The notes under the pieces were generated by a model that made no database searches, had not been told where the DNA came from, and saw nothing but the letters and a program-made list of their open reading frames with translations. A stretch of DNA of 64,000 nt from Fimbriimonadales bacterium (GTDB lineage Bacteria > Armatimonadota > Fimbriimonadia > Fimbriimonadales > ATM1), in the NCBI GenBank assembly GCA_041744215.1, contig JBGTLG010000015.1, forward strand, positions 1 through 64,000, read 5' to 3'. Shown here piece after piece: positions 1-2,035 of the stretch; within the stretch, counting starts at the first letter, position 1, and every line of letters starts with the position of its first letter. The position numbers were made by a program, and so were the translations under genes.

Positions 1-2
1 CC

Positions 3-509
3 GCGTTCATAACGACGGCCGTCCTCGATTTCGTACCCGCCTTCGCCGACCCAGTCGTTGCGACCCGAATGAGAGATCTCTTGTTCGAGATCCACAAGCA
101 CTGCAACGCGCATCTCTTCGGCTTCGTCATCATGCCAGAACATCTTCACTTGATCACGCAACTGCCGCGCTGCATGGACGACAGCGAATTCATGCGGCGG
201 ATGAAAGCTTACTCGGCGAAAGCACTGATCCCACTTCTCGATGTGCGCACTCGCGACCGCTTTTCATCGCAGGCCGGGCTGAATCAACGGCAGTTCTGGC
301 AACGCAGCTTTCGCGCGTTCGAAATCGTAAAGAAGGAGGTGTTTCTTCAGAAGTTGAACTACATCCACCAAAACCCGGTCAGGCGCGGGTTGACGGCCGT
401 AGCAGCGCAATACGAATGGTCGAGTGCAAAGATGTATCTGAATGGCGAAGTCGACTCGGATGGAGCTCTCGTCTCACGCGAACGTAGTCTCAACAGGAGG
501 ACCAGTTGA
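3..509 (+). mobile_element. REP-associated tyrosine transposase (RAYT/TnpA-REP, Y1 HUH family), 5' truncated by the window edge
   Basis: Frame is open from base 3 (AFITT...). HUH motif MPEHLH, plus FWQR, NYIHQNPVRRGL and YEWSS, all typical of RAYT. Confidence 0.9.
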
Positions 510-512
510 GAC
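484..512 (+). repeat. REP-like element: GTAG foot plus palindrome
   Basis: GTAG (484-487) followed by the stem GTCTCAAC/GTTGAGAC around a 10-nt loop, overlapping the RAYT 3' end. Confidence 0.55.
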
Positions 513-742
513 ATCTGAAATAAAGACGAAATCACACCCAAACAAGCATCCCCGCGCGACAGCCTTCTTGCCCCAGCCACCCCGGCGAAGCAATTCTTCC
601 TTGTAGCCGAAGTCACACCGATTGAGCAATCTGAGGTAAACCAAGCTGAAGACTGCATGGAGGATGTCGAATGCCAACGAATTCACCCAAGCCACCGAAG
701 AACGACGCTTTTAACGGGCCACGCCCGCCGCTGCGGTTGCCC

Positions 743-1381
743 ATGCAACTGATTCGAAGACTTCACGGCGCGCTTGCGTTGCTTGCGTTCGCGGCGGCAG
801 GGCACACGCAGCAGCCTCCGACCCAGGTCCCTACGTGAACCGGGTGACCTGGCGAGGGTCAACTGCTCGGTACGGGCAGTCTCGATAAGAAATGGGTGGT
901 GGCGTATCGATTTGCGGATGTGCCGCAGCCTCGTGCGCGCTCGCGCTTTACTGCGGATTACAACTTGGACGACCGCCTGCAACTCGGCTTCGAATACAAC
1001 TTTCCTGTCGGTGAATTTGGCTTTCGCGGCACGTATGTTGTTGCGCATGAGACCGAATCGTGCCCGATGATCCATGTGAACACGTCATCGGATCGCATTG
1101 GGACTCCGCGTGGCCATCAGCAAGTTTCGCTGACGGCGGCGAAGGGCATTCCCGGCACGAACATTGCGCCGTATGTTTCGCTGACGTATTCGGGATTCGA
1201 GAAGGGCTTTGTCTTCCCGTTCGGTCTGAACTATCAGATAGATGAGAATTGGAGCGTTCTGGGGATGAACGACGGGCGCAAGTCTCATGTGATGGTGAAC
1301 TACTCTGCGAAGAGTTTCTATGTGCAGGCGGGGCTGATCTGGATTAAGCACCCCGCGGTGACGGTCGGCTGGGGGTTTTGA
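743..1381 (+). CDS. Candidate UxxU selenoprotein A: signal peptide, U-T-G-U-P-G, probable small outer-membrane beta-barrel (212 aa with readthrough)
   Basis: ATG743 is in frame with ORF 896..1381: MQLIRRLHGALALLAFAAAGHT-QQPPTQVPT-(TGA836)-TG-(TGA845)-PGEG...VTVGWGF, ending in Phe. An alternative in-frame ATG at 671 has GGAGG upstream. Confidence 0.75.
853..884 (+). promoter_or_regulatory. SECIS-like hairpin of gene A
   Basis: Lower stem CGAG/CTCG, bulge GGTCA, upper stem ACTGCTCG/CGGGCAGT, loop GTA. The loop is 22 nt after the second TGA and 31 nt after the first. Confidence 0.6.
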
Positions 1382-1408: not shown

Positions 1409-2035
1409 TTAGCGAAACAGGCTGAGAAGGATGCCCATTGGACGTCCGTCCGCGCCCCAAAGCGATACTGAGCCGAACTCGAACACGTATCCGATGTAGA
1501 GATTCGTATCGTGGCCGGTGTGTTGAAAGCCACCGTACGCCGGACCGACCGCGAGCTTCGCGCCGTTGATGCCATGCAGATGTTTCTCGTTCGGCCGCTT
1601 CACCAGGCCCGTGTAGATTTCTGCGCGCATATCGCCGCCTAACTGGAACGACTTTCCGACGGTTGCAAACGGCGAAACTTGCGTTTCCTATGTCCCCTGG
1701 AACGCGAATCCGACGGTCACGCTTGGGACGGTTTCTGTTTCGGGAACCAGGCGGTAGTTTCCCATGAGGCGGACGGCCTCGCGGCTCCAGATGTAGGCCG
1801 CGCCTACCTGGAGGCGGGGCACTTGGCGGGGCCTATAGAAGAGAAACGACTGCGTGAGGCGGTCGCCCTTGCCTGGTGCGAAGAACGTTGTCAGTATCCA
1901 TTCGGACTCACGGTCCGACAGGCGGCCCGGCTCTGAGCCGACCCCGCCGCCTGGTCACAACGGTCATCCGCCGCCGGTTCCCTGGCCGTATGCCAGGGCG
2001 GGCAACATCGCAAGGAGAAGCCAGAACGCTTTCAT
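1409..2035 (-). CDS. Candidate UxxU selenoprotein B, paralog of A: signal peptide, U-P-L-U-P-G, beta-barrel (208 codons, with one internal TAG)
   Basis: MKAFWLLLAMLPALAYG-QGTGGG-(TGA 1966-1964)-PL-(TGA 1957-1955)-PGGG...NYRLVPETETVPSVTVG...(TAG 1690-1688). It continues in frame into ORF 1409..1630. Confidence 0.7.
1919..1953 (-). promoter_or_regulatory. SECIS-like hairpin of gene B
   Basis: Lower stem CAGGCGGC/GCCGCCTG, bulge GGGG, upper stem TCGGCT/AGCCGG, loop CAG, 19 and 28 nt after the two TGAs. A second hairpin TCGGAC-CGTGA-GTCCGA follows at 1918-1902. Confidence 0.5.

Follow-up and report, generated by a model that had tools for sequence, protein, structure and literature searches.

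A predicted double-selenocysteine outer-membrane barrel protein encoded across two in-frame UGA codons in a Fimbriimonadales genome

The present work concerns gene A, a candidate selenoprotein gene located near the beginning of a 64,000-nucleotide (nt) stretch of contig JBGTLG010000015.1 from a Fimbriimonadales bacterium of the phylum Armatimonadota; this whole stretch is referred to below as the window. The genome to which it belongs measures 2.68 Mb in 42 contigs and is 93% complete. Gene A occupies a single frame on the forward strand, from ATG743 to TGA1381, and comprises 212 codons when TGA is translated as selenocysteine (Sec, U). Its product then reads MQLIRRLHGALALLAFAAAGHTQQPPTQVPT-U-TG-U-PGEGQLLGTGSLDKKWVVAYRF...AVTVGWGF, followed by the stop. 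The sole in-frame interruptions are TGA836-838 (codon 32) and TGA845-847 (codon 35), and the next stop, TGA1379-1381, is the true end of the gene according to both the translation and the stops of its orthologues. Under translation table 11 the locus is reduced to an open reading frame (ORF) at GTG896..1381, which encodes 161 amino acids (aa), ends in VTVGWGF and has no hydrophobic N-terminus. A preliminary description of this DNA had pointed to this ORF, with its barrel-like end and missing signal peptide, and to a signal peptide encoded in the same frame from ATG743 and split off only by TGA836 and TGA845; the letters and coordinates of both observations proved correct.

The native start, ATG743, opens the signal peptide MQLIRRLHGALALLAFAAAG (743..802), which was called by eye from its RR n-region, its ALALLAFAAA core and the small residues ahead of the predicted cut. 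It aligns with the signal peptides of the orthologues, which end in a near-invariant Gln, and it coincides with a helix at residues 3-18 of an AlphaFold2 model. The assembly was checked against contigs from three DNA runs of one study. The contigs of the second sequencing run (X2) contain the piece 618-969 with 0 differences, both TGAs included, and the TGAs are thus not the error of one assembly. Gene A retains 28/28 family-invariant residues, with no frameshift and no extra stop. It is a real, intact gene and a member of a widespread protein family that is truncated at the UGAs in public annotation.

Selenocysteine machinery and conservation of the two UGA codons

The components taken as the criterion for a bacterial selenoprotein gene, namely tRNA-Sec, SelA, SelB and SelD, are all encoded in this genome. 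The tRNA-Sec scores 78.4 bits and is called SeC, with anticodon tca, by ARAGORN; selB (356 bits) and selA (471 bits) are both free of internal stops, and selD (339 bits; locus L018, G000:C16:75837-76805, reverse strand) contains a single in-frame TGA at the classical VDCAG-U-ASK position. TGA is a normal stop in this lineage and no general sense codon, since selA and selB lack internal stops, gene A itself ends in TGA, and TGA, TAA and TAG interchange among its orthologues: the stop after the last conserved aromatic residue is TGA at 9 of 30 loci and TAA or TAG at 21. Elsewhere in the genome, a thioredoxin-like match with one in-frame TGA (G000:C2:27976-28326, reverse strand) may represent a Sec-containing redoxin.

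The 40 protein homologues recovered from a large database are all 121-175 aa in length, and none extends over more than 81% of the read-through protein. Each is recorded as a "hypothetical protein" whose start lies beyond the second TGA; as a consequence, the public records of hundreds of genomes lack the signal peptide as well as the sole functional residues that are invariant. A six-frame search within the same order returned gene A matches in 62 of 151 genomes. Among the best 60 rows of the resulting table (E <= 3.8e-33), in which the TGAs were counted by hand, two in-frame TGAs are present in 58, one in 1 and none in 1. Signal peptide, VP[TSA]-U-[TV]-G-U-PGEG and barrel follow one another in each of the 30 loci retrieved from the order's other genomes. 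One of these 30, L026 (genome G037, unpublished), also supplies one row in each of the alignments A1 (27), A2 (45) and A3 (23); no claim hinges on it.

Beyond the order, a profile search across the phylum located the family in 59 of 301 genomes, mostly with two TGAs, and a scan of 185,579 species (one genome each) confirmed 450 relatives, of which the best 80 were kept for inspection of the motif. Apart from a few bins bearing other labels, these 80 are labelled as members of Armatimonadota (Fimbriimonadales, Chthonomonadales and Abditibacteriaceae), of Acidobacteriota (Thermoanaerobaculia and Pyrinomonadaceae) or of Vulcanimicrobiota. U-x-x-U-PGEG is present in 78 of them; the remaining two (L131 and L138) are aligned from query residue 97 on, their N-termini lying outside the alignment. 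The preliminary description had named the N-termini of homologues as the point on which its proposal would fall. On inspection none begins near position 896, and the upstream signal peptide is conserved together with the motif, in which each of the two positions is U or cysteine (Cys, C).

A Cys homologue is the classical test for a Sec codon. In a 45-sequence alignment, which includes the branch of gene A and that of its neighbouring paralogue, gene B, no column besides the two U/C ones is invariant, glycines aside, and Cys is the sole residue that replaces U in the homologues of both branches. At the first UGA (836..838) of the gene A branch, Cys occurs in the CxxU forms L157 (C-A-G-U-PGEG) and L167 (C-P-G-U-PGEG); at the second (845..847), it occurs in the UxxC forms L158 and L163-L166 (U-A-G-C-A[GA]EA); and both positions are Cys in the CxxC forms L151-L155 (C-A-G-C-AGEA). 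The 19 loci of the gene B branch comprise nine with U-P-x-U, nine with C-P-L-U and one with C-P-L-C. Sec is the prevailing state at both positions and the Cys forms are in the minority. Gene A thus has both the conserved in-frame UGAs and the Cys homologues by which a bacterial selenoprotein gene is recognised, and on these sequence comparisons its two UGAs very probably encode Sec.

A hairpin of the SECIS type downstream of both UGA codons

A hairpin resembling a selenocysteine insertion sequence (SECIS) lies within the coding sequence at 862..880, with a stem at 862-868/874-880 and the loop GGUAC at 869-873, the distance to the loop being 21 nt from the second UGA and 30 nt from the first. 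It was delineated in an ungapped alignment of 27 distinct orthologue stretches, each beginning 15 nt ahead of the first UGA and ending 75 nt beyond it. RNAalifold places the consensus hairpin at columns 42-48/54-60, equivalent to 862-868/874-880 of the window, and pairing is maintained in 95.2% of the cells. Three of the seven pairs are compensatory (GC/CG/AU, UA/CG and CG/GC/UA), and cells in which both partners have changed number 27, versus 9.7 in column shuffles, a value reached in 0 of 500 shuffles. As a control, sliding the stem partner by 1-3 columns lowers pairing to 45-65%. C48, T51 and G54, all of them third-codon positions, do not vary, a sign that the RNA is under selection in addition to the protein. 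An uninterrupted stem of at least 5 base pairs (bp) is found at the same place in 26 of the 27 orthologues, whose loop consensus is RGUUC. The 19-nt hairpin of the window folds with a minimum free energy (MFE) of -9.9 kcal/mol (z -4.65), and 0 of 200 shuffles were as good.

The model of the bacterial SECIS (bSECIS), as given in the searched part of PMC13188914, specifies a loop of 3-9 nt, a stem of 4-16 bp, a G in the first two loop positions, a spacing of 16-37 nt between UGA and loop, and an MFE of -7.5 kcal/mol or lower. The gene A hairpin agrees with every one of these published values for both UGAs. The selD gene of the same genome carries a hairpin of the same design, with a 7-bp stem and the loop AGUUG, 15 nt after its UGA. 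When the whole genome was scanned with a strict pattern (TGA, 11-18 nt, a 7-bp stem and an RGUWS loop), 3 sites only were obtained: selD, gene A and one uncharacterised site on contig C6. The latter (forward strand, about 193145) falls in an open frame reading ...AKPRA-U-TPTSGF... and may constitute a further selenoprotein gene. A search of 600-2100 against Rfam at E <= 10 gave two chance-level matches (a miRNA and a snoRNA), none of them on the hairpin.

The Cys-containing homologues bear on which of the two codons is served. The five UxxC homologues have the hairpin at the same columns, with 7, 5, 6, 7 and 7 of 7 pairs, and the CxxU homologue L157 has it there with 7 of 7. In the UxxC forms only the first codon is UGA and the position of the hairpin is kept, so the distance serves the first codon too. 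Judged by these forms, a hairpin at one fixed place is predicted to serve the first codon, the second, or both. The UxxU, CxxU, UxxC and CxxC forms with a fixed hairpin make up a natural series in which the reach of one bacterial SECIS can be tested directly. Taken together, the Sec machinery, the conserved TGAs, the Cys homologues and the covarying hairpin uphold the earlier proposal that the true N-terminus of gene A lies upstream and that export of the barrel would require both UGAs to be read as Sec.

The barrel, its partner proteins and a possible role

The structure of the product was modelled with AlphaFold2 from a 45-row alignment in which U was written as C, giving a mean predicted local distance difference test (pLDDT) score of 86.5 and a predicted template modelling score (pTM) of 0.80. 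Residues 51-212 (893..1378) form about 12 strands at pLDDT 91-96 and end in an aromatic F; DSSP reports 13 elements, of which 155-157 and 160-165 are read as one broken strand. Foldseek matched FapF, designed 10- and 12-stranded transmembrane barrels, NanC and KdgM. An exhaustive structural search (VIA) returned FapF (5o65_A; Z 16.2, 168 residues aligned, root-mean-square deviation (rmsd) 2.6), KdgM (4pr7_A; Z 15.6, 152 aligned, rmsd 2.5), the COG4313 channel (4rl8_A; Z 15.6, 167 aligned, rmsd 2.8) and NalP (1uyo_X; Z 15.5, 169 aligned, rmsd 2.7), in addition to EstA, AIDA-I and LpxR at Z 14-15. These structural matches are 12-stranded outer-membrane barrels with 5-16% sequence identity to gene A. 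Together with NanC (2wjr), the first four share the fold and strand number of gene A at Z 13-16 and rmsd 2.5-3.0 over 150-169 residues. The features that define a 12-stranded outer-membrane beta-barrel, namely a signal peptide (here called by eye), 12 antiparallel strands that close a barrel and a C-terminal aromatic residue, are all present, and the fold supports the suggestion in the preliminary description that the ORF encodes an outer-membrane barrel. On the basis of the model, an outer-membrane barrel is predicted with high confidence.

Despite this structural likeness, the sequence finds no named relative. Searches of gene A and gene B against Pfam and NCBIfam assigned neither to a family, gene A having 0 families at E <= 1 in each; in particular, it has no Pfam match to KdgM/NanC or to other named barrels. 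Fused relatives give YjbH Pfam matches, all of them sub-threshold, and the ESM Atlas contains unnamed clusters from Acidobacteriota and Armatimonadota. In several 12-stranded barrels an N-terminal segment occupies or plugs the lumen, and to our knowledge a Sec or Cys pair at the N-terminus has not been described for the 12-stranded barrels matched here. Several of the structural matches begin at model residue 23 or 34, where pLDDT is low, and the aligned region corresponds to the lumen segment of FapF and of autotransporters; this is no more than an indication that the pore might admit the Sec segment.

The surroundings of the gene were surveyed at 27 orthologue loci with 232 flanking ORFs. 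Fifty-eight of these ORFs are no more than 450 nt away and have the same orientation, and 41 of the 58 were scanned with Pfam. A redoxin or thioredoxin gene lies directly downstream on the same strand at 12 of the 27 loci, with a weak match to the YHS domain in 10 of the 12. At 11 loci it encodes a secreted protein of 216-226 aa and starts 3-16 nt downstream of the barrel gene; the twelfth is L023. At a further locus, L022, a redoxin without a YHS match lies directly upstream. The best models for the partner redoxins are ResA/TlpA, at scores below the model cut-offs, and the proteins possess an invariant WATWCxPC and a conserved N-terminal CxxC...C module. A regulator of the ArsR/SmtB type adjoins the barrel gene at 5 of the 27 loci (HTH_5; NF033788 at 85 bits, cut-off 55).

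The same domains recur in fusions. Signal peptide, YHS, UxxU and barrel are joined in L120, L126 and L139; signal peptide, YHS, TlpA (with WCxPC), UxxU and barrel in L141, L142 and L149, at about 430-495 aa; and thioredoxin, UxxU and barrel in L145. The hosts of these fusions are Vulcanimicrobiota, Thermoanaerobaculia, Abditibacteriaceae, Pyrinomonadaceae and bins bearing other labels. Because both TGAs fall mid-gene, gene callers must split these long genes. The CxxC forms have YHS-type modules (two, by eye) N-terminal to the motif, and the 64 database relatives of one CxxC form mostly belong to PF04945, under the source name "YHS domain-containing protein". According to Pfam, the YHS domain (PF04945) is absent from gene A itself and present in fused relatives and neighbours. 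Elsewhere, the window's genome has genes for TlpA-like proteins, for a DsbD-type membrane reductase and for stand-alone multi-YHS proteins; a search of it with a TlpA partner from an orthologue locus returned generic thioredoxin-like matches, the best being a 192-aa WCGPC protein without YHS. The genome also encodes, at G000:C41:203380-203793 (forward strand), a secreted, barrel-less protein with three YHS/TRASH-type modules, which by eye resembles the N-terminal half of the CxxC fusions.

In an even-stranded outer-membrane barrel the N-terminus is periplasmic, and in the fusions the motif comes straight after a periplasmic thioredoxin domain; the Sec pair is for these reasons predicted to lie on the periplasmic side. 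Gene A quite probably encodes, to judge from its sequence and that of its relatives, an exported protein whose parts would be, in order, a signal peptide, a short flexible segment VPT-Sec-Thr-Gly-Sec-PGEG and a 12-stranded outer-membrane barrel, both UGAs being read as Sec by means of one SECIS. SelB and tRNA-Sec would decode UGA836 and UGA845, directed by the single coding-sequence hairpin at 862-880, and UGA1379, which has no such hairpin, would bring about termination. Where selenium or decoding is lacking, a 31-residue peptide only would be made, and the barrel could thus not be exported; initiation at GTG896 would yield a barrel devoid of a signal peptide. Production of the exported barrel should accordingly depend on selenium and SelB.

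The predicted Sec-x-x-Sec pair would sit at the periplasmic mouth of the barrel, where it might cycle between diselenide and selenol, relay reducing equivalents, or bind a soft metal or metalloid. The pair may be reduced or loaded by a TlpA/ResA-like periplasmic thioredoxin that bears a metal-binding YHS (TRASH-type) domain, and some of the operons would respond to an ArsR/SmtB sensor. The YHS and TlpA-like modules beside or fused to the barrel, and ArsR/SmtB at some loci, point to a metal or redox role. A part in metal or metalloid handling, as a trap, a gate or a hand-over point for passage through the barrel, has about an even chance of being correct on this genomic evidence, and a purely redox role appears rather unlikely. 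A broader picture can be put forward tentatively: a hitherto unrecognised selenoprotein family that crosses phyla, consisting of a small outer-membrane channel with a selenol/diselenide pair at its periplasmic entrance, served by a dedicated YHS-TlpA module that is often under an ArsR/SmtB metal sensor, would function in the outer membrane as a gate, a trap or an electron relay, dependent on selenium, for a soft metal or metalloid. In this family one SECIS would serve two UGAs nine nt apart, and the path would have led from CxxC through CxxU or UxxC to UxxU, with Sec prevailing.

TlpA, ResA and CcmG are periplasmic thiol-disulfide reductases that act on CxxC/CxxxC metal sites (Sco1, CoxB, apocytochrome c). 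By analogy with those systems, the neighbour or fusion partner of the gene A family is TlpA/ResA-like with WCxPC, and its presumed client would be a dithiol/diselenol site, maybe a metal-binding one; in contrast to them, the client would be a Sec-bearing outer-membrane barrel, and the partner appears to contain an extra YHS/TRASH-type domain. Gene A further differs from the thioredoxin-fold UxxU selenoproteins (Prx-like, SelL-related) in that it has no thioredoxin or redoxin domain, their class being defined by UxxU at the N-terminal end of a helix within a thioredoxin fold.

Several UxxU families are listed in the searched parts of two reviews of known and predicted prokaryotic selenoprotein families (PMC13188914, 2026; PMC9312934, 2022), namely a Prx-like thiol:disulfide oxidoreductase, the metal-binding NF041115 and an FmdB-family protein; a YHS selenoprotein with a GxU motif, NF041384, is listed there too. 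As far as those parts describe them, selenoproteins of the UxxU, UxxC and CxxU kinds have in common with gene A two Sec two positions apart, UGAs nine nt apart, an in-frame bSECIS and Cys homologues, and NF041115 has a presumed soft-metal site such as is proposed for gene A. The UxxU motif of gene A lies, unlike theirs, in the flexible N-terminal segment of a barrel and not in a thioredoxin or HMA fold. The only other Sec-containing outer-membrane beta-barrel encountered in the searched parts of both reviews is GSU2204/MtrB-PioB (NF041027), which is a much larger barrel with CXXCH and one Sec, as against the 12 strands and the UxxU pair of gene A. None of the NCBIfam models of the known UxxU families, NF041027 and NF041384 matches gene A at E <= 1, and NF041384 reaches 17.7 bits (cut-off 70) against the YHS part of a fused relative.

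The word "Armatimonad" is absent from both reviews, and a full-text literature search confined to the articles themselves produced no description of the gene A family. The decoding mechanism is the known bacterial one; the novelty lies in the family itself, in the fold and location of its members, in a double Sec that is nearly universal, and in the linked YHS-TlpA module. For selenium biology, this adds a family with an almost universal double Sec on an outer-membrane barrel, one other predicted case of a Sec-containing barrel having been found in the searched parts of the two reviews. The link to YHS, TlpA and ArsR/SmtB also points to an unstudied metal or redox function in the outer membrane of Armatimonadota and Acidobacteriota.

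The upstream repeat, gene B and competing explanations

Upstream of gene A, positions 1..731 belong to a multi-copy genome repeat, recognised by Pfam, blastn and read depth, which includes a fragment of an IS200-like (Y1_Tnp) transposase in the ORF 3..509 (Pfam E 3.3e-10). Parts of it recur, in a blastn comparison of window positions 1-760 with the genome, on at least 10 other contigs, often at contig ends, including C7, C18, C20, C25, C26, C33, C34 and C35; read depth rises and contigs are broken at 600-650. The copies on C26, C35 and C25 are alike through ...GGGCCACGCC[C/G]GCCG (window about 716-731) and diverge afterwards, which puts the end of the repeat about 12 nt ahead of ATG743. The in-frame ATG671 and its GGAGG (659-663; together 659..673, forward strand), offered in the preliminary description as an alternative start, are indeed there, but they are repeat-borne: the copies on C26, C35 and C25 each bear the same GGAG-ATG short ORF start, reading outward into unrelated DNA. 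As they belong to the repeat, have no counterpart in the orthologues, and the orthologue signal peptides align with the ATG743 form, ATG671 was rejected as the native start in favour of ATG743. A read-out transcript from the repeat could still be translated from ATG671, in which case 24 extra residues would precede the signal peptide.

On the other side, gene B (1409..2035, reverse strand) converges with gene A. It reads MKAFWLLLAMLPALAYGQGTGGG-U-PL-U-PGGG..., that is, a signal peptide followed by U-x-x-U-P in the motif GGG-U-PL-U-PGGG. Its TGAs lie at 1966-1964 and 1957-1955 (reverse strand), and it is also interrupted by an in-frame TAG at 1690-1688. This TAG is reproduced in the contigs of runs X2 and X3 and is missing from the close orthologues with two in-frame TGAs (L052-L056, L058 and L059), so that gene B is probably a pseudogene in this genome.

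Several observations weigh against the proposed reading of gene A. The repeat 12 nt from the start, the loss of neighbours (no TlpA/YHS gene or ArsR adjoins gene A) and the TAG in gene B mean that the locus may be poorly expressed or decaying. As to the hairpin, the CxxC homologues, meant as a hairpin-free control, retain 2, 3, 6, 3 and 6 of 7 pairs, and the control is not clean; the hairpin also falls in the conserved coding stretch L-L-G-S-G, which makes part of its conservation protein-level; and the 23 nt between the first UGA and the stem exceed the optimum for E. coli fdhF. The YHS matches of the partner proteins score 20-25 bits against a Pfam cut-off of 30.3. Residues 19-50 of the model, which hold the UxxU motif, are coil-like at pLDDT 57-67, and with values so low the Sec pair can be located only indirectly.

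The first of these points leads to the explanation that survives best among the alternatives, though it is still improbable, namely that gene A was built as a selenoprotein gene and is a silent or decaying remnant in this genome. The mobile repeat would have replaced the native leader, a scan of 400-2300 for promoters and terminators found none, the adjoining paralogue is already broken, and the downstream redoxin of 12 of the 27 orthologue loci has no equivalent here. Gene A itself shows no such damage, however, with its frame, its invariant residues and its hairpin all intact; an adjacent redoxin is also missing at 15 of the 27 orthologue loci, proteins of the TlpA, DsbD and YHS types are available from elsewhere in the genome, and the repeat could supply an outward promoter.

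A functional selenoprotein gene is the preferred reading, and it must also be set against the passage of the UGAs by other means, be it near-cognate insertion of Trp or Cys or a variant genetic code. Sequence alone cannot separate read-through from Sec insertion, but this explanation is very improbable in view of the dedicated, covarying hairpin at SECIS distance, the exchange in homologues always with Cys and never with Trp or Gly, the complete Sec machinery, and the role of TGA as terminator of gene A and of 9 of 30 orthologues, with none inside selA or selB. Least credible of all is that public annotation is correct in its 161-aa protein from GTG896, the upstream frame being a separate short ORF or untranslated: the uniformly short calls of all 40 database homologues would agree with it, but a standard gene finder that meets an in-frame TGA can give nothing else. 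The upstream residues, from the signal peptide through VPT-U-TG-U-PGEG to the linker before strand 1, keep their frame and are conserved from phylum to phylum, and in the Cys forms and fusions they plainly belong to one protein. Lacking a signal peptide, the barrel would have no route to the outer membrane.

Gene A and gene B are distant paralogues, since each used as a query recovers members of the other's branch. The hairpin is less uniform in the gene B branch, where a mixed alignment gives a weak 4-pair consensus and a stem of at least 5 bp around an RGUNN loop is found in 8 of 19 sequences; gene B of the window and its closest orthologues do not fit this loop type. The genome contains a third paralogue, L156 (G000:C30:154252-154851, forward strand), which is intact and has one Sec, in ...EAR-C-P-L-U-VAGG..., together with a hairpin with an RGUUC loop at the same offset as in gene A. 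The neighbours of gene A and of L156 in this genome gave no functional clue. In several other genomes, barrels of the gene A and gene B types are encoded within about 1-2 kb of each other, and in one of them (G123) a thioredoxin gene lies between the two.

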